64,000 bases of DNA, from UHGV virus genome UHGV-0112180; one strand, given 5' to 3'. This DNA comes from a virus. Below the pieces are notes generated by a model. It was given only the letters and a program-made list of their open reading frames with translations, did not search any database and was not told the DNA's origin. Shown here in pieces: positions 6,852 to 46,600 of the stretch. Position 1 is the first letter of the stretch, and every line of letters begins with the position of its first letter. The translations under genes and the position numbers were made by a program.

Positions 6852-6870
6852 TATAGTAAAACACATACAA

Positions 6871-6900: not shown

Positions 6901-6907
6901 GTAATTA

Positions 6908-7108: not shown

Positions 7109-7129
7109 TAAAAGTAATCAGGATAAGCT

Positions 7130-12448: not shown

Positions 12449-12811
12449 TTAACTAACAATCCAGTCCGTAGCAACAACATCCTCTGGAGCTAAATCAATC
12501 GCATGGATTTTCCCATCCCGGATAGTGCGCCAGTGCTTTCGTGATCCACCTTCGGGCCACACCCATACACCTTCAGGCCAGGATACTCGACGGCATACGA
12601 TTGCATAGCCTGTTTTAATCCTCTCTCTGGCGGTATGCAACGACAGGTTTGCCTTTGGACTTTCAGGCACAGGATGGTGGATTGCCTGAAACATCCCCAT
12701 CTTTGGATGATACCAGCGTTTATTGCGTGGTTCTGCCTCCGACATCACCTGCTTAAAGGCTTTCCGGAAGGGGGGCCATGGCCACAATGGAGCGTCGCGC
12801 AAGCAAACCAT
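12449..12811 (-). pseudogene. Frameshifted 3' continuation of the antirepressor gene (copy 1), fused in-frame to a homologue of the small ORF that follows copy 2
   Basis: PPFRKAFKQVMSEAEPRNKRWYHPKMGMFQ parallels SPFMNAFNRMMSEAEHRGKRWYHPKMGQFQ at the end of 51363..52070; the tail VCRRVSWPEGVWVWPEGG parallels VCRRKVWSVGVWAWPDNY of 51166..51366. Confidence 0.3.
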
Positions 12812-13391: not shown

Positions 13392-13606
13392 CAGTGCACC
13401 TCCACGCAGTTCATTGGCAGATTCCAGTAATTGAGGATCTCCATCGCATCAAGAGTGAAGCGAGCAGCAAAAATGCAGGGTTCTTCGGGAAGGTATGAGC
13501 GCGCCTCTGCTTCGGTAGCAGCCATTACGCAGATATAAAGGTGTTTTTGGCAGGAATAGAAACGCCAGATAAATTCAGAATGAGTTGGGGTAGGGATAGT
13601 AGCCAT
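13391..13606 (-). CDS. Icd-like small protein (P1 immI icd position, copy 1)
   Basis: 71 aa, EFIWRF...AATEAEAR motif; stop overlaps the ant start; AAGGAGG ribosome-binding site. Confidence 0.5.
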   Translation of the reverse strand: MATIPTPTHSEFIWRFYSCQKHLYICVMAATEAEARSYLPEEPCIFAARFTLDAMEILNYWNLPMNCVEVH

Positions 13607-16194: not shown

Positions 16195-16672
16195 AGGTTT
16201 AACGCCCGCACAACTGGCAGAGCGTAACGCTGAGTATGTAACGGAAATTTCCCGACTTGAGAAAGCGTGTGCTGCGCTGGCGGCGGAGAATGCTGGGCTG
16301 AAACATGCAATGGCTGTAACTCTTGAGCATGTGTCGGTCACGGATGCAGGGCAGGCCGGAGTTGCTGCAATGATTATCAACGATGCCCTGCACCACAGCG
16401 AAACTCCAGCCACCAATGCTTTTCTGGCTGAAATTCGTGCGGCGGCTCGCAACGAGGGGATTAACTATACCGCAAGCCGTCTTGCTGCTGCTTTCAACCA
16501 CGGATTTATCAATAAGTCTTTACGTGAAGTTTTCGACGTTACGCGCATGATTCTGTCAGCGAAAGAAGAGTTGGCTAATGAACCGCACCCGATTGATGGC
16601 CTGTCCGGTGAATATGCGGAGAAATCCCTTGAAGAATGGGCGGAACAGATTCGCAAAGGAGCTGACAAGTGA
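16184..16672 (+). CDS. Coiled-coil protein, paralogue of 17088..17873 (tentatively Ead/Ea22-like)
   Basis: Shares ALAAENAGLK and FLAEIRAAARNEG...AAAFNHGFI segments with the ORF at 17088. Confidence 0.4.
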   Translation: MKSEGLTPAQLAERNAEYVTEISRLEKACAALAAENAGLKHAMAVTLEHVSVTDAGQAGVAAMIINDALHHSETPATNAFLAEIRAAARNEGINYTASRLAAAFNHGFINKSLREVFDVTRMILSAKEELANEPHPIDGLSGEYAEKSLEEWAEQIRKGADK

Positions 16673-17079
16673 AGAGGATGATTTTTGTGGCGGCATTGCT
16701 GACCATTACCCAACAGGCGCAGGCTTCAGCAGTTATTGTGGCATCTACCGCCGCGACCACGGCTGCTGTAGCTGCTGCGAACTCTGCGAATATCGCAAAC
16801 CAACAGTCACAGCGTGCTGCCAATGCATCAGCCAGTGTTCACCCGATCGCCATTAAGACCGGCAAGAAAAATATAGGTTTCATAACATGCGGCAAACGTT
16901 CTGACGAGGCTGTAGGTTCACTTGGATGTACGGTATATGGGGATAGTGAGAGTAGAGAAATTCCATGGAAAACGTGGCCCGGATACGTTCTCGGATCGAA
17001 GCTCCCTGCCAGCTACGAAGTAAATGCCGTATCGTTTGATCACTATAACGGCGTGGCAACTGTCTATTTTACATACTGA
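16669..17079 (+). CDS. Secreted Ala-rich small protein
   Basis: N-terminal signal peptide MKRMIFVAALLTITQQAQA; Ala/Thr-rich low-complexity region. Confidence 0.35.
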   Translation: MKRMIFVAALLTITQQAQASAVIVASTAATTAAVAAANSANIANQQSQRAANASASVHPIAIKTGKKNIGFITCGKRSDEAVGSLGCTVYGDSESREIPWKTWPGYVLGSKLPASYEVNAVSFDHYNGVATVYFTY

Positions 17080-17087
17080 GGCTCCGC

Positions 17088-17873
17088 ATGAAATTCTCCA
17101 AATTTTCTGAGTTGGTGAATCGTATTTTGTCCAACAACCACAGCCATCGTCGCGATATGGATGTAACGATCATTGTTCATTCGCCTGGCAGCATTGGTTC
17201 AACACCCTCAGTTGAGGTTCAGTCAATTCACGCTGGTTTTGATTGGGATTCCGGGAAAGTGCTGATTTTCCCTGCACAGCCACTGACTACGCTAACACCA
17301 GAACAGATTACTGATATTACTGATAGTGTGCGCAAAGGTCAGTCCTGGCACGCATATCAGGAATACAAGAAGCATAAAGAGCAGTTGGAAAAATTATCGA
17401 TTGAACTTGATACCGCAAAACAGCGCATTGCAGAGCTGGAGGGTAATCGCGCGGCGCTGGCTGCGGAGAATGCGAGACTGAAGGCGATATGTGAGGATCG
17501 CCGCACGTTCATTATGAATGGCGTGCAGCTTGGTTTTATCAAGGTGCCAACAGTGGAAATAGATCCAGCTCTTGAAACAATTCGTATCGCCCTATCACCA
17601 CAAAAAACCACTCCTGCGACCGACACTTTCCTGGATGAAGTGAAGACTGAAGCACGCAAGGAGGGCGCTTACTTTGTGGCGAACAGGATGCTGGCTGCCT
17701 GGAAAGCTGGTTTTATTGATGATACTGCGAAGAACGCCGCGGATATTGCCCGGATGATTCTTACCTCTACTGAGTTTATGGCTAATGCGCGGGAAGGCGA
17801 TTTTGACCGCTCATTCTCTGATGGCGTTCTCGAAGATATCGCCGAACAGCTTAGAAAAGGAGGTAAACAGTGA
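17088..17873 (+). CDS. Coiled-coil protein, paralogue of 16184..16672
   Basis: ALAAENARLKAICE and FLDEVKTEARKEGAYFVANRMLAAWKAGFIDD match the 16184 ORF. Confidence 0.4.
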   Translation: MKFSKFSELVNRILSNNHSHRRDMDVTIIVHSPGSIGSTPSVEVQSIHAGFDWDSGKVLIFPAQPLTTLTPEQITDITDSVRKGQSWHAYQEYKKHKEQLEKLSIELDTAKQRIAELEGNRAALAAENARLKAICEDRRTFIMNGVQLGFIKVPTVEIDPALETIRIALSPQKTTPATDTFLDEVKTEARKEGAYFVANRMLAAWKAGFIDDTAKNAADIARMILTSTEFMANAREGDFDRSFSDGVLEDIAEQLRKGGKQ

Positions 17874-18118
17874 GTAATACCGCACGACTACAGCTTGGTT
17901 TTTCACCGCTATCAAAAACCATCGTGTTGGCAAAAATGCGTGACTTAGGGGATGGAACAAAACGTCGTGTCGGCAATGATCGCGGTCGTGATGTAACCAA
18001 CGAGGCCGCACAACTCGTTTGGCATCTAGTCATGGCTGAAGGCGGTGAAATTAATTGGGAGCTGGATGATGGTTCTCGCATGGTATTGAAGGCAGAAAAG
18101 CAGGAGCCACCACAGTGA
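17870..18118 (+). CDS. Hypothetical small protein
   Basis: Translationally coupled chain of small ORFs (4-nt overlaps). Confidence 0.3.
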   Translation: MSNTARLQLGFSPLSKTIVLAKMRDLGDGTKRRVGNDRGRDVTNEAAQLVWHLVMAEGGEINWELDDGSRMVLKAEKQEPPQ

Positions 18119-21014: not shown

Positions 21015-21810
21015 CTATCAAGAACTGCGCGAGGCGGCGGAACAGGCAACGCAAGATGAATGGGTAGCATATATTTTGCCGGGTCATAACGGCATTTATC
21101 CTGCGCGCACGTCTGAGGGTAGGCATTGCGGATACTTTATTGACTGGCCTGGCATTGATGGACAAAGGAATGCTGGTGCTAATGCCCGTTATATCGCGTC
21201 TATCCCACCAAAAGTTGCGCTGGCACTCCTGGCCGAAATTAAGTGCCTGGAAGACACAAATATTGATGCCATGTGCCGAATTGCAGAACTGGAAAAACAA
21301 TGCGCTGAATGGGAGCGAAAAGCATTAAGCAACTTTGAAGAGTGTGCTGCTATGGCTGAACGTATCGAAGAGTTGCAGACAAACTCTGCACCAGGTTCGT
21401 TTGGCATCATCGGTGAAAATATTCGAACACAGGATAATCGAATAACGTCAGACCCTATGTTTTGTGTGTATCAAAAGCGCGAAATCGTTGTTGATGCTGA
21501 TTATGACTATGACCGGATTGTCTGGGTTGATGAAGATGGCAATGAAGCCAATAAACGCCAAAGTCGTCGTCTCGAACTACTTCACGAAAACTTTCGAGAG
21601 CCACCAGAAAAATGGCGGCGCGTTGCTGTGAAAGATATTGATGAATTCGTGACCTGCTGTTTCACCGAGCAGGGTTGTAAAGACTACTTGGCAGCCAATG
21701 GTCACAATCTTCGCTTGCCTTTTATATATGTAAAAAGCGGTTTCAGGAACGCTGAATATATCGGCATAAGAAACTGGCTTGCTGGCATTCGCATCAAAGG
21801 AGGTGAGTAA
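21001..21810 (+). CDS. Hypothetical protein
   Basis: 269-aa ORF, coiled-coil mid-region. Confidence 0.35.
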   Translation: MIKINYQELREAAEQATQDEWVAYILPGHNGIYPARTSEGRHCGYFIDWPGIDGQRNAGANARYIASIPPKVALALLAEIKCLEDTNIDAMCRIAELEKQCAEWERKALSNFEECAAMAERIEELQTNSAPGSFGIIGENIRTQDNRITSDPMFCVYQKREIVVDADYDYDRIVWVDEDGNEANKRQSRRLELLHENFREPPEKWRRVAVKDIDEFVTCCFTEQGCKDYLAANGHNLRLPFIYVKSGFRNAEYIGIRNWLAGIRIKGGE

Positions 21811-21982
21811 TGCGTGTGGCATGTATCGGCTTGTTACCGTACCCGACTCGTTTTTGGGCTTCTGCGCTAATTGCAAAGCCACATGTCCTGATGGCTGACA
21901 ACATCATCCCGGCACCAAAGCGCCGCCATACCGGTATTGCAGCGGCACGACGAGCAGCAAAGAAACGCAGGAGAGCAAAACG

Positions 21983-22165
21983 ATGAAAAACCGTAAAGCA
22001 AAGATTCTGTTAGTTCGTAGAAACGCCCCTAGCGTCTGGCAGTGGGTGAGACTCAGCAACCGACGGATGGGGTTGATGAAATATTACGGGATGATGGATT
22101 GTTGTTTTTGCAAAAAGCCTACCGCGGCACAGAACAGGCGGAAGAAAGGGTACGCAGTACGATGA
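21983..22165 (+). CDS. Small basic protein, tandem paralogue 1
   Basis: MKNRKAKILLVRR...; repeated immediately downstream. Confidence 0.25.
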   Translation: MKNRKAKILLVRRNAPSVWQWVRLSNRRMGLMKYYGMMDCCFCKKPTAAQNRRKKGYAVR

Positions 22166-22564: not shown

Positions 22565-23421
22565 CAACTATTACCAGAGAAAACGCGGAAATTAAATCAT
22601 TCATCACTGGTTTCCTGAGCGACCCGGCGCACGACAACCAATCTACAGACAGCCTGCTTGCCAATGTGTTTCGTATCGCACAGGCATCGCTGGAAGCAGA
22701 GCCTATTGGTGAAGTTTCAGAGAAGCGACACGGCCTTGTTATGGATGGAACGGTAGACCTTGGCGGGAAATCAACTTATCGCATCATTAAGGGAGAAAAA
22801 GCGATGAAGTTGTTGCCGTTGGGGACGAAGTTTTATACCGCACCGCCAGCGCCGGTAATACAGGCTGATGTCGCGCAAGCAATTGAAAATCTCAAGCAGA
22901 AATTAGTGGAATGCAATCGCTATAACTACTGCGCAGATGCAGTTAAGGGCGTAGAGGATGCCTGCCACGCTGCCATGCTTCAGGGTATCCAACCTGTAAG
23001 CCAAACTTACAACTTGCCAGAATTAATCGAAGGGATGGAAGTTTCCATTGATGTAAGCACTTGTGATGCTGATTTAGGTAATCGCTATTTCGGCACCGTC
23101 ACCGAGGCGTTAGAACTTGATACAGCCAAGAATGGTTACATCCTCCTGGTTCAGGACGCAGAGCCAAACTTCGATGTAAATGGCAACTCTCCGGTAACTC
23201 CGGATAGTTGGATAAGCTGTAGTGATCGAATGCCTGAAAAGGGCCAGAACGTGCTTATTTCGGTGAATTTCGATAGCTCTCTGGTTGAACCGCTAATATG
23301 CTCCGCACGCTATACCGGAAGCACCTTTCGGCGCGGAGATGCAACGATTAAGCCGGGTAATGGTATTGAGCAAGCAACTCACTGGATGCCGCTACCGGAA
23401 CCGCCGCAGGAGGCGAAATGA
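22561..23421 (+). CDS. Hypothetical protein
   Basis: 286-aa ORF, coupled to neighbours. Confidence 0.4.
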   Translation: MTTITRENAEIKSFITGFLSDPAHDNQSTDSLLANVFRIAQASLEAEPIGEVSEKRHGLVMDGTVDLGGKSTYRIIKGEKAMKLLPLGTKFYTAPPAPVIQADVAQAIENLKQKLVECNRYNYCADAVKGVEDACHAAMLQGIQPVSQTYNLPELIEGMEVSIDVSTCDADLGNRYFGTVTEALELDTAKNGYILLVQDAEPNFDVNGNSPVTPDSWISCSDRMPEKGQNVLISVNFDSSLVEPLICSARYTGSTFRRGDATIKPGNGIEQATHWMPLPEPPQEAK

Positions 23422-23678
23422 TGGATGTAAAAGAGAAGGTTTTGCAGGTGATGCGTTCCCGGGCTGCCCTGCAAGATAAAGCTCTCGGCGGGGAATATCC
23501 ATTCAGGATGGCAACCTGGAATTTGCGGTTGGCAATGGAGAAGGAATTTCCTGATGAAGAATGGCGTTCGGCAGATTTGCGAAAAATCCTTATGGAGATT
23601 GCTAAAGACGGAACAGTATCTAAAGATAACCATGCCAGCCGGATTGGTCAGGCGGTATGGAGACTGGAGGTGCGGTAA
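23418..23678 (+). CDS. Hypothetical small protein
   Basis: 86-aa coupled ORF. Confidence 0.3.
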   Translation: MMDVKEKVLQVMRSRAALQDKALGGEYPFRMATWNLRLAMEKEFPDEEWRSADLRKILMEIAKDGTVSKDNHASRIGQAVWRLEVR

Positions 23679-23959
23679 TGGCTAACCTGCAACTTGCCGT
23701 CAAAGGTGAATACTTCGATGCCATGATTCGCGGAGATAAAACGGAAGAGTATCGCCTGTGTAATGACTACTGGAATAAGCGAATCATGTTCCGGGAATAT
23801 GACCGCCTGATTATCACAAAGGGATATCCGAAGCGCGACGACTCCAGCCGCAGAATTGATGTTCCGTATGACGGATATGAAATCAAGACAATCACACATC
23901 TGCACTTCGGCGATAAACCGGTAAAGGTGTTCGCGATAAAAGTGAAGATTAATAGCTAA
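23678..23959 (+). CDS. ASCH/PUA-like small protein (tentative)
   Basis: Start MANLQLAVKGEYFDAMIRGDKTEEYR with GGAGG upstream; resembles ASCH/DUF3850-type proteins. Confidence 0.35.
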   Translation: MANLQLAVKGEYFDAMIRGDKTEEYRLCNDYWNKRIMFREYDRLIITKGYPKRDDSSRRIDVPYDGYEIKTITHLHFGDKPVKVFAIKVKINS

Positions 23960-23982
23960 ATTTCAATTAACACGGAGTAATT

Positions 23983-24276
23983 ATGTGGCGCGGTAATAAT
24001 CATGGCGGAAGTCAGATGATACTTACCGAATATACGTTCGACCACAAAACCAATAAATCACGTTCAGTATATTTGCTTCGGCACAATAGCCGCGTAAGAA
24101 ATACCGTTCTGGAGCAAAATCTGACCGTTGAAATGGATAATTTGGGAAACTTCAAGCCAACAATATCGCTTGATGATTTTCCGTGTGGTTTAAGCGAAAG
24201 AGAAGCAATGCTGAAATTAGCAGAATGGTTACAAAGATTGAGCATTGCTATTGAAGATAACTGGATTCAACCATAA
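23983..24276 (+). CDS. Hypothetical protein
   Basis: 97-aa ORF. Confidence 0.3.
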   Translation: MWRGNNHGGSQMILTEYTFDHKTNKSRSVYLLRHNSRVRNTVLEQNLTVEMDNLGNFKPTISLDDFPCGLSEREAMLKLAEWLQRLSIAIEDNWIQP

Positions 24277-24300
24277 TGAAAAACAGAAAGAAAGATTGCT

Positions 24301-24510
24301 ATGACAACATTTAGTAAATTCGCAGTAATTATGATTTTATTAATCCCTCTCACTGTTACAGCAGGGGAACAGCAACATTGCACAAAAGAGAATGAACACC
24401 CTTTCATCGTTATTCAATGCGATGACGGAACGGTGACTGTGGTTAATGTAAGAAATGACCGTGTAGCTGTTTGCCGTAAAGGCGAACCATGCAAGGAAAT
24501 AAAACTATGA
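24301..24510 (+). CDS. Small secreted protein (signal peptide), AT-rich
   Basis: MTTFSKFAVIMILLIPLTVTAGE signal peptide; paired cysteines. Confidence 0.35.
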   Translation: MTTFSKFAVIMILLIPLTVTAGEQQHCTKENEHPFIVIQCDDGTVTVVNVRNDRVAVCRKGEPCKEIKL

Positions 24511-24625
24511 CAAGAATCACTAAAGAGCGTATTTCAGATATTATTTCCCGTATCGAAATGTATGGTCACGGTGCTGGATACACAGCAGATGAAGTATTGG
24601 AGCTTGCCAAAATAGCTTTAGCGCC

Positions 24626-25255
24626 TTGCAAGGAGGTAAAGCTATGACACTGATTGACTTGTTAGTGAAGGAATTATCTAAGGGGCGTGGATGGCCTGAT
24701 GGAAAAGATTTTTGCCATCTATCCATTACGATGCCAGGTAGTAGTCGCGCTACGGTTCTTTTTGGTACGCGCCATAAAAATTACCAATCATCAAAGAATT
24801 ATTCCATTGATGGCATTATTTGTGATATCAGTGACCTTGATCGCAGTGCGTTTACATCGGTTGTCACTCGTGAACAGTATGAAGCAGCTCGCATAGCGTC
24901 TCAGAAAGTCAAGTCTGAAAGTAAGGCTTACAAGTTAGATTTTGAGCAATGGCTGGAGCAGCAACGCGGGGAAATCGATGTGGACTGCGGTTGTGTGTCT
25001 GCGGAAACATTCATGCACTGGTTGCGGGTAGCTTATGAGGCTGGGAACCATCCGGTTCTTCCGGATAGTTCCCAACAAGCGCCCAGGAAAAGCGTAAAAA
25101 CCACTCTGGAAAGAGGCTATCTTGAGGCCGCATTAAAGATTAAGCCGGGCCATACGCTAGGCGTCATTGATGCCATGTTGGTTCATGAAATGGCTAAGGC
25201 TTTATTGCCGCTGGTGGCTGATAAACATGAGGCGGGCCATGCCAACGAAAGCTGA
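24626..25255 (+). CDS. Hypothetical protein
   Basis: 209-aa ORF. Confidence 0.35.
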   Translation: MQGGKAMTLIDLLVKELSKGRGWPDGKDFCHLSITMPGSSRATVLFGTRHKNYQSSKNYSIDGIICDISDLDRSAFTSVVTREQYEAARIASQKVKSESKAYKLDFEQWLEQQRGEIDVDCGCVSAETFMHWLRVAYEAGNHPVLPDSSQQAPRKSVKTTLERGYLEAALKIKPGHTLGVIDAMLVHEMAKALLPLVADKHEAGHANES

Positions 25256-25792: not shown

Positions 25793-26182
25793 ATGGGCTT
25801 CCCTTCTCCTGCGGCGGATTATGTTGAAAGCCGAATTTCTCTTGATCAGCAGATAATTAGACATCCATCAGCAACCTACTTCATGCGGGCAGCTGATAGC
25901 CATCACCGTGAGGGAATATTGCAGGGTGCTTTGCTGGTGGTTGATTCTTCGCTTACTCCAGTTGATGGTTCGCTGCTTGTGTGCGCTATGGAGGGTGAAT
26001 ATCGCATAAAGAGATACAGGAAGTATCCGCGCCAGCACCTGGAGGATTTAAGCACCGGGAAGAAAGAGGCGTTACCAGTAGATGACGATGGTTACACGGG
26101 TAGTAATGCTGTTTTTGGTGTGATCACTCATGTCATCAATGATGCCCGAAGTGGGGAATTTGATGATTGTCCGGTCATTTAA
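25793..26182 (+). CDS. humD: UmuD'-like protein (P1 HumD homologue), S24 peptidase fold
   Basis: MGFPSPAADYVE...HPSATYF...VFGVITHVIN aligns with E. coli UmuD from the GFPSPAADYVE region onward. Confidence 0.8.
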   Translation: MGFPSPAADYVESRISLDQQIIRHPSATYFMRAADSHHREGILQGALLVVDSSLTPVDGSLLVCAMEGEYRIKRYRKYPRQHLEDLSTGKKEALPVDDDGYTGSNAVFGVITHVINDARSGEFDDCPVI

Positions 26183-26254: not shown

Positions 26255-26476
26255 ATGCAATCCATTAACTTCCGTACCGCGCGCGGCAACCTTTCTGAAG
26301 TGCTCAACAATGTTGAAGCCGGGGAAGAGGTTGAAATCACCCGCAGAGGCCGTGAGTCAGCAGTAATTGTCAGCAAGGCTACTTTCGAAGCCTACAAAAA
26401 AGCGGCGCTGGATGCTGAATTTGCATCCCTGTTTGACACCCTGGACTCCACCAACAAGGAACTGGTTAACCGATAA
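26255..26476 (+). CDS. phd: Phd antitoxin (prevent-host-death)
   Basis: [32 protein letters not shown]... essentially matches remembered P1 Phd; stop overlaps doc start. Confidence 0.9.
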
Positions 26477-26856
26477 TGAGGCATATATCACCGGAAGAAC
26501 TTATTGCGCTTCATGATGCGAATATAAACCGCTACGGCGGCCTGCCGGGAATGTCAGATCCGGGTAGGGCAGAGGCCATTATCGGGAGAGTTCAGGCCAG
26601 AGTTGCCTACGAAGAGATCACCGACCTTTTCGAAGTCTCCGCCACCTACCTGGTGGCTACAGCGAGAGGGCATATATTCAATGATGCCAATAAGCGTACC
26701 GCGCTAAACAGTGCGCTGTTATTTCTACGCCGTAACGGGGTGCAGGTATTTGATTCACCTGAACTGGCAGACCTTACCGTAGGGGCTGCGACCGGAGAGA
26801 TATCTGTATCTTCTGTCGCCGACACGTTACGTAGATTGTATGGTTCCGCGGAGTAG
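26476..26856 (+). CDS. doc: Doc toxin (death-on-curing, Fic fold)
   Basis: [17 protein letters not shown]... with [12 protein letters not shown] Fic-like motif; essentially matches remembered P1 Doc. Confidence 0.9.
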
Positions 26857-27873: not shown

Positions 27874-28536
27874 TCACTCCACTACAAACCAGTCACATGC
27901 CAGTAAGTCGCCTACAGAAGGAACCCACGGAACAACTACACCTTGTGCATTTTTTAAGGCGAAATAAGCACCATACGGAACGAGGTCGCCGGGGAAATAT
28001 CCCTTAATGGCTTCCATTCGTGCCGGGTACTGTCCTTCAGGAACCAGCCAGCAGAATTGGTTTTCACCGTTCCACCCGCGTCGAGCAACTTTCTTTCCTT
28101 CCTTCAGCCACATCAGCGCGTCAGAAAAGTCGGCTGCTTCAAGGTCGATTTCTTCTTGCTGGGTGGTGATGCCACCAGCAGAAATAGTTACGCTTCCGGA
28201 AATATTAATGTTCACGCCGTTGTCATCCGTAATGATGACCGTGGTCCCATTTTCGGAGGTGTCGTTAACCCGGCTATAGCATTTTTCAAATGCTTTCTCT
28301 GGCACATAGACCGGATAGCCATTTTCAGCAGTGACGAGATATCCTCCTATTTGCGGTCGGAATCTTTCCAAGAACACACCATCAACACGAAGCGTCATTC
28401 CTTTTGGCTCAACGACTTCGATACTGCCCAAAATGGGCGCATCAGTTTCGCCGACAATAACAATATCTTTGATTTTCGATGCCCGAATGATGCTGTGGCT
28501 TTTGTATTTGGGGAACACCTGAAAAGTGCTAGCCAT
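27874..28536 (-). CDS. DUF2829-domain protein (Tad2-like C-terminal domain) with an N-terminal beta-rich domain
   Basis: C-terminal FSDALMWLKEGKKVARRGWNGENQFCWLV...VVVPWVPSVGDLLACDWFVVE fits the DUF2829 signature. Confidence 0.5.
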   Translation of the reverse strand: MASTFQVFPKYKSHSIIRASKIKDIVIVGETDAPILGSIEVVEPKGMTLRVDGVFLERFRPQIGGYLVTAENGYPVYVPEKAFEKCYSRVNDTSENGTTVIITDDNGVNINISGSVTISAGGITTQQEEIDLEAADFSDALMWLKEGKKVARRGWNGENQFCWLVPEGQYPARMEAIKGYFPGDLVPYGAYFALKNAQGVVVPWVPSVGDLLACDWFVVE

Positions 28537-29932: not shown

Positions 29933-30961
29933 TTACGAATCCATCAGGCGGCTATTAGCCCCCACAGACACGCCGCCACGGCGAAGATACCGCATAAGTG
30001 TTTCCGGTTTCTTCCAGGTTCCTTCCTGCATGATCTCCACCATAGACACCTGCTTTTCAGCCATATCAATAGCGGCCCCGACGCGTGCACTATGCCCGGT
30101 CCACGTCCGGTATCTTCCTTTGTTTGGCGTAGCATCTCTTTTATTCAGCAACACCCAGGCGTCGCTGAATATTTTCTCCATTGCAGGTGCAGTAAGGGGC
30201 GTTATCGTGATCCTGGCCTTATTGCTACGGTGTATCGGCGGGAACAGCACTGCGTCAGGATGTTCGCGAAGCCCGGAAACATCCAGCCAGTCATTCAGCA
30301 CAGCGGTAGTGCGACGGGAAAGCACCTTATCAAGCCCGGCGGCGGTCGTTATTGTCTTCGTGTGTGAAATATGTAGCGTGACAGTGTCACCTGTTTGGTC
30401 CAGATCTCCTACACGAATACGCGAGATTTCCGACATACGCATCAGCGTATTGTATGCAACAAAGAGAAAAGCCCGGTTGCGCAGGTCCACCAGCCGTTCT
30501 GACCTGGACAACAGGACGTCGAGCAGTTTCAGATCGTCCCACCGCAGCGGTATAGCCTGGCCTGTTCGTTCGCCTTTTTCCGTTGCCGCTTCACGCCGGA
30601 TGCGCCGCATAGCCAGAGAAACACTTTTATCATCCGAAAGTGGCGGAAGGCCACAATGCGAAAGCAGCATGTTAAGCATGGCGTAGTGCTTATCAATGGT
30701 GGTCGAAGCCAGATCAGCATCATGCAGCTGAAGAAAATACTCGCGGGCCATCTCTGGTGAGATCGGGAACCAGGCGAGCTGGCGAGCGTGACACCATCTC
30801 GCCCAGGAGTGAAACACTAACCGGAGATCGCGCAAAGTATTCGGCGCATAAGCCCCCTGGTCATTCATGAACCGCATAAAGTTTTCTGCGGCCTCCTGGT
30901 ACTCTTTGCCAATGTTGCGCAGAAAACCACCGGAGCTGCCAGAGATAATTAATTCACTCAT
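29933..30961 (-). CDS. dre: Cre-family tyrosine recombinase, Dre-like (phage D6 type)
   Basis: 342 aa; aligns to Cre over LSVCRSWAAWC/LVFHSWARWC, MRRIRKE/MRRIRRE, and catalytic region TWTGHSARVGAAIDMA...MRYLRR (Cre GHSARVGAARDMA...MNYIRN); adjacent rox-like site. Confidence 0.85.
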   Translation of the reverse strand: MSELIISGSSGGFLRNIGKEYQEAAENFMRFMNDQGAYAPNTLRDLRLVFHSWARWCHARQLAWFPISPEMAREYFLQLHDADLASTTIDKHYAMLNMLLSHCGLPPLSDDKSVSLAMRRIRREAATEKGERTGQAIPLRWDDLKLLDVLLSRSERLVDLRNRAFLFVAYNTLMRMSEISRIRVGDLDQTGDTVTLHISHTKTITTAAGLDKVLSRRTTAVLNDWLDVSGLREHPDAVLFPPIHRSNKARITITPLTAPAMEKIFSDAWVLLNKRDATPNKGRYRTWTGHSARVGAAIDMAEKQVSMVEIMQEGTWKKPETLMRYLRRGGVSVGANSRLMDS

Positions 30962-31113
30962 GAAACTATTTCACCTCTATATACAGATGACGCTACGCGA
31001 AAAATATAAAAATGACAGGGTAGCTATAAGTTAATTTTCAAAATACAACCCTTTGATTCGATGCACGTATTTTCAGTGATGTCAACACTGTTCATCTACA
31101 CATGATTATAGCC

Positions 31114-31145
31114 TAACTTTAAATAATGCCAATTATTTAAAGTTA
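31114..31145. other. rox-like recombination site (lox-family target of the Dre-like recombinase)
   Basis: TAACTTTAAATAAT-GCCA-ATTATTTAAAGTTA: perfect 14-bp inverted arms, 4-bp spacer, about 150 bp upstream of the recombinase gene; matches the rox site as remembered. Confidence 0.75.
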
Positions 31146-31355
31146 TAAAATGCCGATTTTTTTTAATCCATCATAGATTGATGATGACCAGTAACACGTT
31201 GCCTTCATGGTCTTTAATTTGCGAAGTGTGGTTTCTACGGTTGGTTTTCTAAAATTGATGACAAAAAATCACAGTTCGATCCTTTACTCACTCTGTTATT
31301 CGACATAAATTTGTCATAGTAATTTTATGTTAGAAAACTAAATCGAGTAGGAATA

Positions 31356-32393
31356 ATGAGTAAGAAGTCGATCGAGAAAGAGTACAAACGGTTCCTGCAA
31401 ACCGCTGAACGGTGGAAAGAGCTGGTGGTCGCAAACTCTGTTTTCCATGATACCAGTTATGCTGGCGAGGAATTCCGCCATGTTGCATTAACGCATGACC
31501 AAAACATATTAGAAGAAGCTGAAAAATGTCTTGCTGAATGGAAAGCCTTCGTTGACATGTGCCGCGATGCCGACGGCAAAGCGTCGAACATTGTTGAGTC
31601 TGTATATTCTCCGATCCCATTCATCATTGAGGACACCAATCAAAGCACGCATGTCGTTGTGCAAAGCGCTACAACAACACGTACATTTACACGTGAACAA
31701 TTGCTAAAAAAATACGACAAAATCATAAAGAAAAGCCTTAAAAATAGGGTTTTTTCTCAAATCGTAGGTGATCTTGAAGAAGAACAGCGCTTCTTTGAAG
31801 CTGAGCCTGAAGGCGAGATCTACCGGGCGCGTAAAGAGGCATATACAGATGTTGTGCTGACAACAAACATCGAAGGCAGCAATGCCCTTTCTCGCTTTAG
31901 AGTTGGCGCACATGGTGCATTGGTTTTCGCAAGACTACCGAAGACAACGATCCCCGTTGTCAATAATGTTGGTGAACGCCGGAGCATTACAATTTATTCT
32001 GGCGTCGAATCGGTACCTTGCAGCCTTCTCGGCGATTTTAACTTATATCGTGTTCGTGACCTGGAAAAACACCAGCCAAGCTATGTTGCGAAGTCGTACA
32101 TCTTAAGGAACATCGATATTCGCAATGAAAGCCTTAAGCAGAAATCCGCTAAGATGCTGGAGGATGCCGATCCGGCTATTCGCCATATCATTGAGCGTAA
32201 GATACGTACATCACGTGAAGCAATGGCAAGGCTGGATAAAATGGATCTGGAATTGTTAGACGTAATGATGGCCTCTGGAGACGACCTGACCGGCATTAAA
32301 CTGAATGAAGCTCGTAAAAAATACGGCAAAGCAATCGAAGAACGTTACGGATACACATTCCCCCAAACGCAGTACGCCGCGAAGCTCTGGTAA
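31356..32393 (+). CDS. Hypothetical protein at the P1 immC (c1) position
   Basis: 345-aa ORF convergent with pacB; two copies of the TTTCTAACA-type motif in its upstream region; no sequence-level confirmation. Confidence 0.35.
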   Translation: MSKKSIEKEYKRFLQTAERWKELVVANSVFHDTSYAGEEFRHVALTHDQNILEEAEKCLAEWKAFVDMCRDADGKASNIVESVYSPIPFIIEDTNQSTHVVVQSATTTRTFTREQLLKKYDKIIKKSLKNRVFSQIVGDLEEEQRFFEAEPEGEIYRARKEAYTDVVLTTNIEGSNALSRFRVGAHGALVFARLPKTTIPVVNNVGERRSITIYSGVESVPCSLLGDFNLYRVRDLEKHQPSYVAKSYILRNIDIRNESLKQKSAKMLEDADPAIRHIIERKIRTSREAMARLDKMDLELLDVMMASGDDLTGIKLNEARKKYGKAIEERYGYTFPQTQYAAKLW

Positions 32394-32401
32394 TCACAAC
32401 C

Positions 32402-32428
32402 GGCCCCGCATCGCGGGGCTTTATATAT
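32402..32428. terminator. Hairpin terminator between convergent genes
   Basis: CCGGCCCCGC-ATCG-CGGGGCTTTATAT. Confidence 0.45.
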
Positions 32429-33929
32429 CCAGATCCGGCATTTCGATATCCGCCAGAACCTGATCTCGGAAAGTTGCCATTTCGGCACCAATATCTTCAT
32501 TAGCAGGCACATAGTCCACCAGCATAGTGAAGCAGTAGGTATCCCATCGGTCAGGCGATTTGATGTTTAGCTTTTGCCGCATGTGCTCTTTGCGCATCAT
32601 CGCCATTTTCCCTTCTTCATTCAGTAAAAAGGGGATTTTTGACGCTTGCTCTGCCGTTTTAGGGTCACTGTCTATCCGCATACGCCCTGACTTTATGGCA
32701 TCACGCGCCATAATGTTTGCGTAGGCACGCTGATTAACAAATCGCTCCCTGTCTTTGTTCGCAAACATGGGTTTTCCCCACCGAATACGTACCGGGTTCG
32801 CACCACGACGCACCAACTGCGCACACGTATCAGAACCAAAACCATCAGCATCAACCGCGATTGTTATATTCGGGTATTTTTCCGGCGTACATTCGTTATA
32901 TATGAAGTCAGCAAAGGCCAATGGGTCCATAGTGCCAGGCATCTCCATTACCTTAAAGTTAACAACGCGCCGCTTATCCCTGTGACCTGATACCTTGCAG
33001 ATGTTGAGGACCGACTTATCTCGCCCATTACCAACGTCAGCCGTTGCCACCCATCCCCAGTTTTTCTCCAACAACACCTTGCGGCGAGCAGCGCGATCGC
33101 ATTCATCACGACCAAGCAAATAGCCGTTAATTTCTCGTGGGAACTGACCAAGCACCTTGACCATGTACTCAATAGAATCGCGCCCGCCATATTCCAGAAG
33201 CTTCTCCTTGATGAATTGTGGTGTGACGAACGGTGATTCTTCCGAGTTAAGAACAATTGCTGTCCAGATCCCTTTCGGGTTGTCTGGGGTTTTTGCTCGA
33301 GAATGGTGCGAATCGTAGAAATAACCACTTGGCCTTGTTGGCTGGGATAGCATCAACATCCGGTTATCTTCTTCAGTAAGAGCACCGGTCATTACGCCGA
33401 TCGCCTTATCAGATATACCAGATGCTTCATCCAGAATTAGAAGCAAATGTGCCGCGTGTTCCCCCGCCAGCGCTTCTTCGTTGCCGAGTCGATAACCTTT
33501 GCAGAGAACTTCCCAAATCCCCTTACGGGAGCGCTCATAAAACATGGTGTCAGAGAGGACAAAATAGGTCTGCAACCACCCATGACGCTTAACTGCATTC
33601 GCCCAATACTGTTTAACGTATTTGAATACGCCTGTTTTTACCTGGCCTATCTTGTTAGCAACAATGATGACACGGGCATCGGGGAACAGGATCATAAAAA
33701 TCAACAGCAACATCGCGGTAAGGGACGACTTCCCCGTTCCGTGTCCGGACGTGACGGTCGTCCTACTCCCCGTTTCCTGCACTGACTGAATGATCTGCTG
33801 CTGCTGGTGGGAGGGGAACATCCCAAAAATATCGACTACAGCCTGGGTAAAGTTGTAGCGGTATTTGATTACCATATCGCGCCAGCGTGGATCGCTGGTG
33901 ACGCATTTAATCTTGCGCCCGCCAGCCAT
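32421..33929 (-). CDS. pacB: Terminase large subunit (PacB-like)
   Basis: Walker A VTSGHGTGKS, Walker B-like LLLILDEASGI; size and position after pacA as in P1. Confidence 0.75.
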   Translation of the reverse strand: MAGGRKIKCVTSDPRWRDMVIKYRYNFTQAVVDIFGMFPSHQQQQIIQSVQETGSRTTVTSGHGTGKSSLTAMLLLIFMILFPDARVIIVANKIGQVKTGVFKYVKQYWANAVKRHGWLQTYFVLSDTMFYERSRKGIWEVLCKGYRLGNEEALAGEHAAHLLLILDEASGISDKAIGVMTGALTEEDNRMLMLSQPTRPSGYFYDSHHSRAKTPDNPKGIWTAIVLNSEESPFVTPQFIKEKLLEYGGRDSIEYMVKVLGQFPREINGYLLGRDECDRAARRKVLLEKNWGWVATADVGNGRDKSVLNICKVSGHRDKRRVVNFKVMEMPGTMDPLAFADFIYNECTPEKYPNITIAVDADGFGSDTCAQLVRRGANPVRIRWGKPMFANKDRERFVNQRAYANIMARDAIKSGRMRIDSDPKTAEQASKIPFLLNEEGKMAMMRKEHMRQKLNIKSPDRWDTYCFTMLVDYVPANEDIGAEMATFRDQVLADIEMPDLDI

Positions 33930-35293
33930 TAATCATCCTCCGGCGGTTCTATCGCGATATCATCATCTCCGGCGTCATACCCTGCATCAGATGCATCATA
34001 ATCACCGTAAATTTCAGCCGTTGCCGAAGGGTCAATATCCAGCTCTTCGTCGTTGGCCTCGAATTCTCCAGCTTTACGCTCGCCATTGCGGTCGTAATCT
34101 CCGCACCCCAATTCTTCAACAATGGTTGCCACATCCGCCCGGCGCTCTGCCAGCCATTGCGGATGGTTAGCCTGAAGCGTTGCAAACTCCCTTGCCTCTT
34201 TGTCCAGCTGTTCATCATCAACATCATTGACGTCAGAAACAGGTGGTTCGAGAAGAGTGATAGCTTTCGCCGCGCGCGCCGCGAGGATAGCCGGGACGCT
34301 GACACCCTGGCGCTCGATGTATTCAGCAACACCGATATCATCCAGTTCCTCGCGCTCACGCATACGTATAGCGGCGGCGATAACTCTGGCTGCGCGTGCG
34401 TCAGCGCCAATGCGATATTCAATCTCTTTGCCACGCTGTTCGGCCTGTAGGCGTGCTAATTCGAGTTTTTCTCTGGCCTCAGCCTCTTTGAATGCTTGCT
34501 GGCGAGCGCTCTGACGAAGCTTTTCATCCCCCTGTCGCAGCTTTTGTTCGGACTGATATATAGCTGCCAACCTACTGATAAAATCATTCATGTAGTAGGC
34601 CGCGTCACTGATTAGACCGAGAAGGCGCTGCCCAGGGTGCATTCCTTCTGGCTCTTTATCGCCCAAGGCGTCTATTTCCGCCTGTAGACGTTCGGCCTCC
34701 TGATCAACAATGCTTTGATACTGAAGTGCGCGCTCTTGCGCCATTTGAATTGCTAACCGCAGGTGTTCTTCTGCGCCGTTCTTCATCATATCGCGAGCCA
34801 CATTCGTAGTTGGCAATGTGGCACGCTGCACAGCACCGTCAGGGATCATTGCAGAAGATCCCTCAATTTTTGGGGCGTTTTTATCTTCTTCGGGGATCAT
34901 TTTCGCCATTTTTTCGCGCAATGATCTCCTGACGGATTCTTTTATCTCATTGTTATTATTTGAATTATTTTCATGATCCGAAGTTTTCTTTCTCGGCATA
35001 CTTCGGAAAGAACCTGCGCCCTGCGAATTGTCAATTTCTGTAAATTTTGTTTTTTCTGCACCCTCTTCCAGCTTTTTTGTTGCTCTTCCCGCCCGTTTTT
35101 TTTCAGGTGATTTGGTGCTTTTTTTTGTTGTCTTTACCTGCGACCGCACCTCATTTTTTTTCATATTGAGATGCTTTCTGGCTGTATTGAAGCTAAGGCC
35201 ATGCTCCTCACAGTATTCCTTTACAGTGATCCCTTTTTCTTCACGCAACGCTATAAAGCGGGCGCGGTGCTCCTCCCAATTAACCAGACTCAT
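33929..35293 (-). CDS. pacA: Terminase small subunit (PacA-like)
   Basis: N-terminal HTH-like segment (ITVKEYCEEHGLSFNTARKHL); coupled to pacB; GATC cluster inside 5' part. Confidence 0.55.
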   Translation of the reverse strand: MSLVNWEEHRARFIALREEKGITVKEYCEEHGLSFNTARKHLNMKKNEVRSQVKTTKKSTKSPEKKRAGRATKKLEEGAEKTKFTEIDNSQGAGSFRSMPRKKTSDHENNSNNNNEIKESVRRSLREKMAKMIPEEDKNAPKIEGSSAMIPDGAVQRATLPTTNVARDMMKNGAEEHLRLAIQMAQERALQYQSIVDQEAERLQAEIDALGDKEPEGMHPGQRLLGLISDAAYYMNDFISRLAAIYQSEQKLRQGDEKLRQSARQQAFKEAEAREKLELARLQAEQRGKEIEYRIGADARAARVIAAAIRMREREELDDIGVAEYIERQGVSVPAILAARAAKAITLLEPPVSDVNDVDDEQLDKEAREFATLQANHPQWLAERRADVATIVEELGCGDYDRNGERKAGEFEANDEELDIDPSATAEIYGDYDASDAGYDAGDDDIAIEPPEDD

Positions 35294-37212: not shown

Positions 37213-37288
37213 TGGTGGCCCCTACCGGACTTGAACCGGTGACCGTGCGATTATGAGTCGCCAGCTCTAACCACTGAGCTAAGGGGCC
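37213..37288 (-). tRNA. tRNA with CAU anticodon (Ile2/lysidine-type, ileX-like; Met not excluded)
   Basis: GGCCCCTTAGCTCAGTGGTTAGAGC...GACTCATAATC...GGTTCAAGTCCGGTAGGGGCCACCA; 7-bp acceptor stem, canonical D and T arms, encoded CCA. Confidence 0.8.
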
Positions 37289-37297
37289 AATTAGTTT

Positions 37298-37411
37298 TTA
37301 TTTTCGACGCCTGAGATTCTTCGCTACTTGTTCTACTCCGTATACGATCACAAGCAGAAATAGCAAAGACCATCCAGGGTTCTTATCAATATACGTCCAA
37401 AAATCCATCAT
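37298..37411 (-). CDS. Small membrane peptide (37 aa), tci-operon member
   Basis: MMDFWTYIDKNPGWSLLFLLVIVYGVEQVAKNLRRRK; start overlaps upstream stop (ATGA). Confidence 0.25.
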   Translation of the reverse strand: MMDFWTYIDKNPGWSLLFLLVIVYGVEQVAKNLRRRK

Positions 37412-37572
37412 GAGTTCCTGAACGCAGCTTTAATAATCGGCAATAGCAATACCACAGCTACTGAAACCAGTGCCCCATCAGCCAACACCGACATCACTTT
37501 GCTGGTGAAATCCACCAGCACGGACAAAACGAGAAAACCAATGGCGCACGCAATACGCGCCTTGCCAATCAT
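37408..37572 (-). CDS. Small membrane protein (54 aa), tci-operon member
   Basis: MIGKARIACAIGFLVLSVLVDFTSKVMSVLADGALVSVAVVLLLPIIKAAFRNS; start overlaps the TerB-like stop (TAATG). Confidence 0.35.
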   Translation of the reverse strand: MIGKARIACAIGFLVLSVLVDFTSKVMSVLADGALVSVAVVLLLPIIKAAFRNS

Positions 37573-38006
37573 TACAGATAATCTTCCACACGAAGGCCCA
37601 AACGACGGCCTACTTCTTCCAGTACTTTGTGTTCTGCTGGCTCGATTTCACCGTCCGCTTCTGCAATCGTCAGCATGTTAACGAATACTTCTTCCGCTTC
37701 TTTTGGATCATTTTTGATATCTTCAATTTCGCGAAGGATATTCATGCGACCAACACGGAAACCAGCTTCCAGTTGCTCAGTAAAACGGGTGATTGTTGCG
37801 GTAATTTCGTTGCCAAAATGACTTAAGCGAGGATTAGAGCGGACAAGCTGATCAAGTTTCGCTGTTTCTTCCTTTTCGATTTCACCATCTGCGGCAGACA
37901 CCAACAAACAGCCACCGATAATGGCCTCCATCAGATCGCGATTCTCAACCCTTTTCAGCTCTACTTTTGCTGAAGCGACTTTCTTACCGAAAAATTTACC
38001 GAACAT
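37572..38006 (-). CDS. TerB-family tellurite-resistance-like protein (P1 TciA analogue)
   Basis: Two AADGEI / AEADGEI TerB-type repeats in a 144-aa protein. Confidence 0.65.
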   Translation of the reverse strand: MFGKFFGKKVASAKVELKRVENRDLMEAIIGGCLLVSAADGEIEKEETAKLDQLVRSNPRLSHFGNEITATITRFTEQLEAGFRVGRMNILREIEDIKNDPKEAEEVFVNMLTIAEADGEIEPAEHKVLEEVGRRLGLRVEDYL

Positions 38007-38273
38007 TGGTTATCCCTCAATAAACATGACGTATTTATTAGGTTGCGGTGCCTGGTGCCTCCAGGTGACGTTAACCAGTTAACAATTAACGCCGGGATGT
38101 TTGACTTAACCACTAAGGAGGATTGTTTTAACTGTTCCGCGTGCGCATAGCCGCATTCACCGCAATGGTAAGAGCACTTGGCTGGCTGGGCGGCGATGAC
38201 GCCTGTACGCATTTGGTGATCCGGTTCTGCTTCCGGCATTCGCTTAATTAGCCAAATACTCTTAACGTTGCAC

Positions 38274-38360
38274 TGGCGGAGAGTAATGGAATCGAACCAT
38301 CATCGCTTGCGCAATGGGACGGTTTTCAAGACCGTTTGAGCACCATGCTCCCTACTCTCC
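38274..38360 (-). tRNA. tRNA-Ser(UGA)-like, type II with long variable arm and atypically short D-loop (possible pseudo-tRNA)
   Basis: Acceptor GGAGAGT/ACTCTCC + G + CCA; anticodon arm ACGGT-CTTGAAA-ACCGT; T-arm GATGG-TTCGATT-CCATT; D-loop only about 5 nt. Confidence 0.45.
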
Positions 38361-38462
38361 AGTGATTGTGATGGTCGGTGCTGAACTCCGACACAGGGTT
38401 GTAGCAAGCCCCGCAAAGCGCGCACTACTGTAGTTGCGGCACATCAGCCTGTGCATTCACCA

Positions 38463-38552
38463 CAATGTTGAGAACACTGGTTGTCACGCTGCAACGCAAC
38501 ATTTATTCGTAGATTGGGATATGACCCCGTTACGCCAGTGTTCTCAACGTTG
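38463..38552. repeat. Hairpin element of the tRNA-array repeat family (18-bp near-perfect inverted repeat)
   Basis: CAATGTTGAGAACACTGG ... CCAGTGTTCTCAACGTTG with about 55-nt loop. Confidence 0.45.
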
Positions 38553-38690
38553 TAGTGCCGGTTACGGTTCCGGCCAGGCCTCTTCCTCAACGGGGTGTTC
38601 TCCATACGGACTACCGTTTATTGGTCGTTCCTGCGGTTTATGTTGTGAAGCCAGATGCTTATCTTCTGGTTGCTTCAAAGAGCTGCACTT

Positions 38691-38770
38691 CATCACAACG
38701 GTAAGAGCACTCGATGCATTTAAGCCAAGCCCCATAAGGGAGAATGCCCTTACCTGTTGTGTTGTGATGA
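38691..38770. repeat. Hairpin element of the tRNA-array repeat family
   Basis: CATCACAACGGTAAGAGCAC ... GCCCTTACCTGTTGTGTTGTGATG. Confidence 0.45.
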
Positions 38771-38884
38771 CCGGTGCTGATCTCCGGCTTGCGGTTATTT
38801 CAGACTCTCACGGGCGTTTATTTGCCCCGCCGAACAGCTCTTTTCCGCAATAGCTGCAATGTCTTTCGCGCATCAGCCTGCGCA

Positions 38885-38977
38885 TTCATCACAACGGTAA
38901 GGGTACTTCGTAGGGATTCGAACCCTCTGCCAAGCACGGCGATCTCCGACGTCGCAAAATACCCTTACCTGTTGTGT
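38885..38977. repeat. Hairpin element of the tRNA-array repeat family; interior carries a tRNA T-arm-like GGGATTCGAACCC
   Basis: CATTCATCACAACGGTAAGGGTAC ... TACCCTTACCTGTTGTGTTGG, ending immediately before tRNA-Thr. Confidence 0.45.
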
Positions 38978-39054
38978 TGGTGCCGGTTAACGGACTCGAA
39001 CCGCTGACATCCTGCTTACAAGGCAGGCGCTCTACCAACTGAGCTAAACCGGCA
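38978..39054 (-). tRNA. tRNA-Thr (UGU)
   Basis: TGCCGGTTTAGCTCAGTTGGTAGAGCGCCTGCCTTGTAAGCAGGATGTCAGCGGTTCGAGTCCGTTAACCGGCACCA; perfect acceptor and anticodon stems. Confidence 0.8.
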
Positions 39055-39057
39055 ATT

Positions 39058-39144
39058 TGGTGGGGAGTGATGGAGTCGAACCACCCGAGTCGCAATGACA
39101 GTAGATTTACAGTCTACCCCGCTACCCCTACGGACTAACTCCCC
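39058..39144 (-). tRNA. tRNA-Tyr (GUA)-like, type II
   Basis: Acceptor GGGGAGT/ACTCCCC + A + CCA; anticodon arm GTAGA-CTGTAAA-TCTAC; long variable arm; D-arm somewhat atypical. Confidence 0.55.
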
Positions 39145-39149
39145 TGAAT

Positions 39150-39226
39150 TGGCGATGGTGGGTGGATTCGAACCACCGACCGACAGCTTAGAAGGCTGCT
39201 GCTCTATCCTACTGAGCTACACCACC
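39150..39226 (-). tRNA. tRNA-Arg (UCU)
   Basis: GGTGGTGTAGCTCAGTAGGATAGAGC...CCTTCTAAG...GGTGGTTCGAATCCACC...GCCA; anticodon loop CUUCUAA as in argU. Confidence 0.75.
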
Positions 39227-43659: not shown

Positions 43660-46600
43660 TTAGGCCGCATCGGCGATTATTTTACGCAGTTCATCTACCG
43701 AGTAACGCGTAGATACCATCCATGCAGGACGGTCAAAGTTCACATCAGCAACCGGGTTTGCTTCAAAATTCCAGAAACGCCCGCCAATCTTCTTAATCGC
43801 GTCTTTGGCGTTCCGTATTGTCGAGGAACCTGGCTGGTCGGCAATGAGATAAACCGCGCCAACGTCTTCGCTGACGCTCCACCAGCGCCCGCGAACACGC
43901 GCCTTAGCGCGAATCGGCTTATCATTAACCACAATGATATAGTCATCATTCGCCGCTTCATCAGCTCTTGCTTCAGCCACTGCCGCCTGCTCTTCTCTTT
44001 TGCTTTCAGCCTGCTCAAGCCTTTTCGCGATCTCTGATTCAGTGGCCCCGCCGTTTTTCAGCGATACATAGTCCTGCCACGTTGCCGATTTGAGCGCATC
44101 CGGCAACTCATTCACATAGTCGCCGTCTTTCAACTCACGGGCGCGACGGGTAGCCATTTCTACCAGGCGATTAACAGAAACAGCATCAGCAAAATCGTCC
44201 TTACTAATGTGTTTTTCATCAAATGCATTGATGACAGCCCCAACCTTAATCCACTGTGCTGCCGGTGATTCCAAGGGGTTATCAGCCTGAACAATGGCGA
44301 GTTTCGCTCCATCTACCCCATTATTCGCCAGCTGTTCCAATGCCGCCCATCCATCTGCATCACTGAGTGATTTATATTGCTCAAACAATGCATCGCGCCA
44401 GGCCACCAGCGCAGAACGTGTTTTTTCGATCTTCGCCTTAATTTTCGCGATCTTGACCTGATTAAACATCCGTTCAATATCATCGATATTGCTAAAGGCT
44501 TTCATCCTGCCCTGGAATAAACGGTATGCCAGCACGGTCCTCCAGAATGATTCCAGACCTTCTCCGGACGGTTTACGGAACAAGCTAAGAATATCTTCAG
44601 AAGTGACTTTATTAAGCGAACGACCTGACAGACCACGCCCAGCCATCCAGTTTTCGAACTCCTGGGCAACATCATCCATCGTTGCTTGTGCGCCCCATGC
44701 CTGCATTCCCTGGATGTAATCATACCCATACAATGCCTGGAGGAATCCCTCTCCGTCCACGATATTCAGCGGATTATCACTGGCTTGTATTTTTGCCACT
44801 TCACGCTTCAGCGCCTCATTGTTGATATCAGGGTAAATCCACTGCTCTGGTGCAATATCCGATGTACGCCCGATTTTCTGTCCTATCATGCCATCATAGG
44901 TCGATGACAGCGCGATCTGACCATCATCTGTGCGATAAGCCCAGTATTTAATAGCTGACCCACCGCCCCATGCATTACCAGGTTTACCAGCAATAACATT
45001 CATTACCCCATTGCGAATAGCATCATAGAACTGATCGCGAGTAAGTATTGTTGATAGCTGGTGGCACTGAACACCACGCGCAGCCGTTGCGCGCGATTCA
45101 GCTACCCCCTCTTCAAAAGTTACCGCTTCAATCACAGAGTCAAACGGCAATGTAACGATTGACCCCGGTGCTCGAGCGTAACGACTTGCTCTATCCAGCC
45201 AGGCGATACGGCAGAGGTATTGTGCTTTTTCACCGTCAATTTTTTCCACCCGGACAATCGCTGTTGTTTCGCGATCATCAATGACTGCACGGTAATAACT
45301 ACCTTTATGCAACAGGATATTCTTGTCAGTGCGCATATATTCCTGTGGGTTCTGAATAACATCGATACTGATATCCAGCACACCAGACTTAATAGCGCGC
45401 TCCACATCACCACGAGAGCGTTTCATTATGGTATCCGCGTCTTTTGCCCTGGTGATCGCAAACCGCAGCACCCGCGCACGTTTTCTGTAGCTACTCAACT
45501 GCTCAAGCGCGTATTTTTGCCCATTCCTGTTCGTACCCGCTTTTATCAGGTCGTCAAGATTGCGCTGGTAATACTCTATCTGTTCCATCGCGCTTTTCAG
45601 TTCTGTCTCCATCATGCCGATATCTTTTCCGGCGGCGTTTGCCGCTTTCAGGTAGATATCGAGAGCATTGTTGGCCTCGCGCTGTGCTTTCAGTTTCAGA
45701 CGTTCTTCACGCTCTTGCGCCTGGCGAGCCATGATTGCGCGGCGTTCTTCCGGGTTTGCCGCCAGCATAATGGCGCGTTCATCAGCATCATCCGCATCAC
45801 CATTGGCGATCTCTGACATGTCGGAGGTCATCACCATCTTGATCCAATCTTTCTTACGTTTCAGCGTATCCAGACGGAAGTCGTCGAATGTGCCTTTGCC
45901 ACAATAGTAGTGAACATTGACCTTCTCTTGCGGTGAACCTACGCGCGCACCGCGCCCATTTCGTTGGTCGATACTGGCTGGTGTCCAGGGTAGTGTCAGG
46001 TGGTGGATATCGGTTGTCCCGATGTGCAGGTTAATACCTACTTCAGCCTTCTTGTTACAGATTATGATACGCGTGCGACCTTCGTTATAGTCGGCGGCAA
46101 TACCTTCCATGCCCTCAAGGCCAGCATCATTTTTAGCTGAGAGATAATCCTCATATTGGGCAAGTTTGCTGTAGTAGGTTTCCCATGCCCCTTCTTTGTA
46201 TTCACCGTTTTTGTTTGGAGTAGGTTCGGTCGGCTTATTCACCTTCTTCAGCTTGATGCCGCCAGCCTGGCTAACTGTCGTTGCATTGATAATGCCAATC
46301 TCCTGCTCCGGCATTTGCAGTGCACTGGCGATAATACGGCGCAGCTTCTGGTGCTGGGCTTTTTCATCAATAAAGACGATCTGCTTACCGTTCTTCAGAC
46401 CTTCACGAAGATTTTCGATCAGCGCGGCATACTTCGGCGGGATGGGGTGCGATACCTGCTGCATATCAATACCGGCAGCCGCAATGGCCTTAAGTATTTC
46501 AGCTTCCAGTTCAATGCTGGCACGTATTTCAACATGCGTCGGATGTTCACTAAAAGCGGTCTTCACTACCTTGCTGGTACGCGTACTGACCAGCCCGCCA

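Follow-up and report, generated by a model that had tools for sequence, protein, structure and literature searches.

The region analysed here is, with very high probability, the Dre/rox module for site-specific recombination carried by an E. coli phage-plasmid of the D6 type (P1 subgroup 2). It lies in a stretch of DNA of 64,000 nucleotides, the whole of which is called the window in the following. The module is an already known and ordinary one, found in its normal place. The Dre/rox system of phage D6 was reportedly described by Sauer and McDermott in 2004. The identification in itself has little discovery value because the system has been known since that year and is a standard tool of genome engineering, and because D6-type phage-plasmids are a recognised group. 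As an anchor, dre and rox together fix the identity and the orientation of the window, and rox is the conventional coordinate origin of the D6-type phage-plasmid. One mildly new point is a near-consensus promoter that has its -35 hexamer in the rox spacer and hints at an autoregulation of Dre. The features are collected in Table 1.

Table 1. Positions of the Dre/rox module and of the surrounding genes in the window
Feature	Position	Strand	Remarks
dre, Dre tyrosine recombinase	29933..30961	minus	342 aa, ATG start, allele I253; from the list of open reading frames and the match to D6
dre leader, between rox and ATG	30962..31113	minus	152 bp; holds 6 of the 7 intergenic mismatches to D6
Putative dre promoter overlapping rox	31105..31132	minus	sigma-70 consensus scan, 11/12 match
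rox, 32-bp recombination site TAACTTTAAATAATGCCAATTATTTAAAGTTA	31114..31145	plus	unique in the window; identical to D6 and published rox
c1, prophage repressor	31356..32393	plus	99.7% aa identity to D6 C1; divergent neighbour of rox
pacB, terminase gene	32421-33929	minus	99.4% aa identity to D6 PacB
pacA, terminase gene	33929-35293	minus	98.9% aa identity to D6 PacA
humD	25793-26179		D6 orthologue
phd	26255-26473		D6 orthologue
doc	26476-26853		D6 orthologue
darB	43663-50496		D6 orthologue
cin	61890-62447		D6 orthologue
tRNA genes (n=5)	37213-39226	minus	Met, Ser(tga), Thr, Tyr, Arg(tct)

The recombinase and its crossover site

A preliminary description of the same DNA had recognised a recombinase that is related to Cre yet clearly diverged from it, and had called it Dre-like. 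The first part was borne out, and the name proved even too cautious, as the protein is Dre itself with one substitution. It shares 341 of 342 residues with D6 Dre (AAV84949.1), T253I being the sole change, versus 41% identity (133/322 residues) with P1 Cre. The 342-residue product matched the Pfam family Phage_integrase (E=1.9e-16) together with an N-terminal SAM-like domain. When the PDB was searched with Dre, the matches were all Cre chains or engineered Cre derivatives, aligned end-to-end with E values of ~1e-68; the copy of the PDB that was searched yielded no chain of Dre. The full-length alignment to solved Cre chains at 41% identity suggests that Dre would adopt the two-domain Cre fold. 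The catalytic residues R175, E178, K202, H290, R293, W316, and Y325 are intact and stand in register with R173, E176, K201, H289, R292, W315, and Y324 of Cre. The numbering of the Dre catalytic residues in PMC4777119 agrees with the positions present in the window protein.

The gene differs from D6 dre by 36 nucleotides, of which 35 are synonymous and one is nonsynonymous, which argues that dre is functional and under purifying selection. The substituted residue 253 pairs in the alignment with A252 of Cre, a position that we take to lie in a loop at some distance from the active site. Two IMG/VR contigs encode exactly this I253 protein. The I253 allele presumably matches T253 Dre in activity.

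The arms of the crossover site (TAACTTTAAATAAT, 31114-31127 and 31132-31145) are 14-bp perfect reverse complements of each other about the 4-bp spacer GCCA (31128-31131). The earlier reading of a rox-type site with this architecture was confirmed at all 32 positions, both against the rox feature (misc_recomb) annotated in the D6 record AY753669 and against the wild-type rox sequence printed in PMC4777119. The distance to the gene, previously given as about 150 bp upstream, was measured as 152 bp from the dre ATG, and the site lies 210 bp before the ATG of c1, a spacing as in D6. The extent assigned to the feature was accurate except for its end at 31146, which is one base past the site and immaterial. 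The identity of the protein to Dre and the match of the site to rox in arms and spacer had been named as the points on which the reading could fail, and neither comparison went against it. Within the intergenic region of 394 bp between dre and c1, there are seven differences from D6, none of them within rox. Megablast of the dre-rox region against phage records returned only phage D6, whose record labels the corresponding features "dre: tyrosine recombinase" and "region of crossover (rox) site for Dre recombinase".

The sequence TAACTTTAAATAATGCCAATTATTTAAAGTTA occurs a single time in the 64-kb window. No second copy with up to three mismatches was found in the window or in 100 shuffles, and no extra half-site with up to two mismatches was found in the window; this rules out, for the 64 kb, a second rox with which an invertible or excisable segment could be delimited. 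In PMC4777119 as well as in PMC12331466, rox is given as a pair of 14-bp inverted repeats that flank an asymmetric 4-bp spacer. According to the same two papers, Dre originates from phage D6 and shows no cross-reaction with Cre/lox, and work cited there has the T253 protein alone, without an accessory protein, recombining rox and not lox.

The D6-type setting and its relation to P1

The order pacA-pacB-c1-rox-dre is shared with D6 (AY753669, MF356679), and the neighbours are the same on both sides, namely orf117, orf116, and dut beyond the recombinase gene and c1, pacB, and pacA beyond the site. The D6 lineage had been proposed with phd-doc, humD, pacAB, darB, cin, and the tRNAs as further anchors. 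All of these are present, the genes as D6 orthologues, and the lineage held up in a local BLAST comparison of the window with the complete D6 genome. The two are collinear over a stretch that starts at D6 61375, crosses the coordinate origin at rox, and ends at 33691, and D6 covers ~90% of the window at ~96% identity. When the three thirds of the window were compared with phage records by megablast, D6 covered 91%, at least 52%, and 100% of them, as against 3%, 6%, and 11% for P1. Twenty-nine D6 proteins were found in the window at 86-100% identity, including C1, PacA, PacB, Lpa, DarB, DarA, Cin, HumD, Phd, Doc, Ref, Mat, and RepL. D6 itself is placed in subgroup 2 of the P1-like phage-plasmids (P1g2) in PMC10879196.

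The nearest record is an E. coli plasmid, pF16EC0589-1 (CP088384.1), which is circular, non-mobilizable, and 91.9 kb long. Its c1 counterpart is annotated as a phage repressor, and a comparison over 41.5 kb gave 99.95% identity between the plasmid and the window. We rejected the possibility that the window is this plasmid itself, given 18 mismatches and one gap in the 41.5 kb. The genes for plasmid replication and partition, repA and stbAB (45.8-58.4 kb in D6), fall outside the window, and the plasmid lifestyle is therefore deduced from relatives. The earlier assignment to a P1-family phage-plasmid thus stands with respect to D6-type collinearity, whereas the plasmid label is not demonstrable from the window alone and rests on CP088384.1.

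Besides I253 in place of T253, the 35 silent changes in dre, and the seven intergenic changes, the window differs from D6 in being mosaic, with ~10% of it absent from D6, and in carrying another set of tRNA genes. Segments 16442-18112, 21033-22158, and 22565-25106 are absent from D6 and present in CP088384.1. They hold small genes resembling those of lambdoid and Stx phages (ead/Ea22-like, DUF551, eaa, and ASCH), match RCS47, P1-like, and Stx-converting phages, and make up an accessory region of mosaic character that lies between ref and humD. The orf114 homologue (27874-28536, minus strand) encodes 220 residues (DUF2829) versus 146 in D6, its N-terminal part (28254-28533) having no D6 match. 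Positions 38712-39147 have no D6 counterpart either. In D6 (6084-7850), the tRNA genes predicted by ARAGORN are those for Met, Ser, Thr, and Asn, and they lie on the minus strand. The D6 record lacks Met and places the other three on the plus strand, so the strand in the record looks wrong and one tRNA looks unannotated. Two related modules of the icd/antirepressor type (12695-13403 and 51396-51928) are ~75% identical to each other's D6 counterparts; D6-type elements thus carry two immI-like regions. The invertible tail-fibre segment downstream of cin (62444-64000) is the most diverged structural region, with S' at 86% amino-acid identity to D6. Parts of it are nearer to P7 and RCS47 (96% at the nucleotide level) than to D6, suggesting an exchange of host-range cassettes.

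The resemblance to the Cre/loxP system of P1 extends beyond the 41% identity over 322 residues and the identical catalytic residues. In both elements the site is flanked by c1 and the recombinase gene, lies a few kb from the pac genes, and is a short palindrome that works without accessory factors. The architecture of the sites differs (13+8+13 in loxP versus 14+4+14 in rox), and the two systems do not cross-react. In P1, cra and three promoters occupy the ~430 bp that separate lox from cre, whereas rox is 152 bp from dre in the window. Beyond the recombinase gene, P1 has c8-ref-mat where D6 has orf117-orf116-dut.

Probable roles and alternative readings

By analogy with Cre, each 14-bp arm of rox would be bound by one Dre monomer, and a tetramer would join two rox sites. 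Strand exchange would then proceed in two steps via a 3'-phosphotyrosine intermediate at Y325 and a Holliday junction, with the asymmetric GCCA spacer presumably giving the site its polarity and direction, and no accessory protein would be required. Such recombination might resolve head-to-tail plasmid dimers, leading to faithful segregation of the low-copy prophage, and might circularise the terminally redundant phage DNA after infection. By comparison with P1, dimer resolution and circularisation are most likely the roles of Dre/rox, although they are less certain than the identification of the module. In P1, Cre/loxP can also circularise the terminally redundant infecting DNA, and the pac site lies within pacA, a few kb from lox. 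P1 plasmid multimers are resolved by Cre/loxP, leading to stable inheritance (PMC2409434). The conserved order pacA-pacB-c1-site-recombinase, the overwhelmingly plasmid location, and the purifying selection on the gene support P1-like roles for the present module. XerCD at cer or dif and other systems of plasmid multimer resolution presumably do the same job of keeping a replicon monomeric for segregation. XerCD is host-encoded and consists of two recombinases, whereas Dre is encoded by the element and acts alone. At plasmid sites, Xer recombination requires the accessory proteins PepA and ArgR.

The distribution of the module bears on whether Dre could instead be an integrase that inserts the element at a chromosomal attachment site rather than a system of resolution and cyclisation. 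Among 5,426 complete E. coli genomes, 124 carry dre-rox, at 127 places, and megablast found the region in 144 plasmids of PLSDB. Three of the 127 places are chromosomal, PMC10879196 reports a few integrated P1-like elements, and the protein belongs to the Pfam family Phage_integrase, all of which would suit an integrase. The other 124 places are on plasmids, almost always of ~90 kb. The site is a simple lox-type palindrome of 32 bp without arm-type sites, its sequence is the one shown to support simple excision and inversion, and the protein is identical at 341 of 342 residues to Dre. Taken together, we regard an integrase function as very improbable. The three chromosomal places may be integrated D6-type elements.

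Equally improbable in our judgement is that the window carries a drifted relative of Dre, either as a new heterospecific pair or as a decaying remnant. The substitution T253I and the spacer variants ACTA, GCTA, and CCCC in other relatives might be read as signs of drift. The rox site of the window is wild type at 32 of 32 positions, the reading frame is intact with all catalytic residues present, 35 synonymous changes stand against a single nonsynonymous one, and the changed residue aligns with Cre A252 in the presumed loop away from the active site. Since Dre/rox is widely used in genome engineering and the site has exactly the sequence of the engineered wild-type rox, a laboratory construct or vector contaminant also has to be considered. 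Here, dre is embedded in 64 kb of collinear D6-type DNA with native flanks, and 35 synonymous changes set it apart from the D6 gene from which the tools derive, and on these two grounds we exclude contamination for practical purposes. Near-identical DNA is also found on clinical and animal E. coli plasmids worldwide.

A putative promoter overlapping rox and natural variants of the module

The putative dre promoter consists of a -35 hexamer TTGGCA (31132-31127) and a -10 hexamer TATAAT (31110-31105) separated by a 16-nt spacer. The -35 hexamer is made up of the rox spacer and one base from each arm, TATAAT begins 3 bp beyond the edge of rox, and transcription is predicted to start near 31098. 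No other place on either strand of the 64-kb window reaches 11/12 or better; among shuffles of the AT-rich intergenic region, 3.6% yield such a match. Of seven aligned relatives, six have TATAAT at the same offset, as do all 22 IMG/VR loci and the homologue of 70% protein identity, whereas the flank of rox on the c1 side is highly variable among relatives. The variant spacers weaken the -35 hexamer. A perfectly conserved TTGACA at 31085-31080 (minus strand) was not called a promoter, as no acceptable -10 hexamer follows it at a distance of 16-18 nt.

The position of this element suggests an autoregulation of Dre, because Dre bound to rox would occlude the putative promoter. We put forward only tentatively, as a possibility less likely than not, that rox doubles as part of the dre promoter and that Dre bound there represses its own transcription in an autoregulatory loop. 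If this holds, autoregulation would keep the recombinase low in the prophage, and natural spacer variants would alter promoter strength and recombination specificity together. P1 Cre/loxP has no such loop: the annotated cre promoters are at least 90 bp from lox and do not overlap it, whereas the promoter-like element of the window overlaps rox. A search for Dam sites upstream of dre, such as those of the P1 cre promoters, gave one GATC only, far from dre. A literature search, covering work other than the original description of Dre, returned nothing relevant on Dre autoregulation or a promoter embedded in rox.

Homologues of Dre in plasmids and viral contigs range from 100% to ~89% protein identity, with a single viral-contig homologue at 70%. 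All relatives examined retain the rox arms with no more than one base changed, and the distance to the ATG is 152-153 bp throughout. Of the 22 IMG/VR loci, 20 have the spacer GCCA; other spacers were found with identical arms, as GCTA in the IMG/VR locus with the 70%-identical Dre, as CCCC in an IMG/VR locus with a 99%-identical Dre, and as ACTA beside IS26 in an IncFIB conjugative Salmonella plasmid (CP060135.1). These spacer variants are possibly heterospecific sites. A single-base variant of the arm, ATTATCTAAAGTTA, is present in two plasmids. We also scanned species-representative genomes for the two rox arms, allowing any spacer sequence between them. The lone match, with exact arms and a TAAT spacer in an uncultured Clostridia MAG (OZ007016.1, 6381-6412), was judged coincidental because it has the look of an AT-rich hairpin or terminator flanked by runs of A and T and has no Dre homologue nearby.

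For recombinase engineering, nature thus offers Dre variants down to 70% identity with identical rox arms, in addition to the spacer variants ACTA, GCTA, and CCCC, and it may likewise be of interest that the native rox might sit inside the dre promoter. The proximal ~75 nt upstream of the dre ATG (30962-31040) are almost unchanged in the 70%-identity homologue, and the dre leader is therefore more conserved than the coding sequence.
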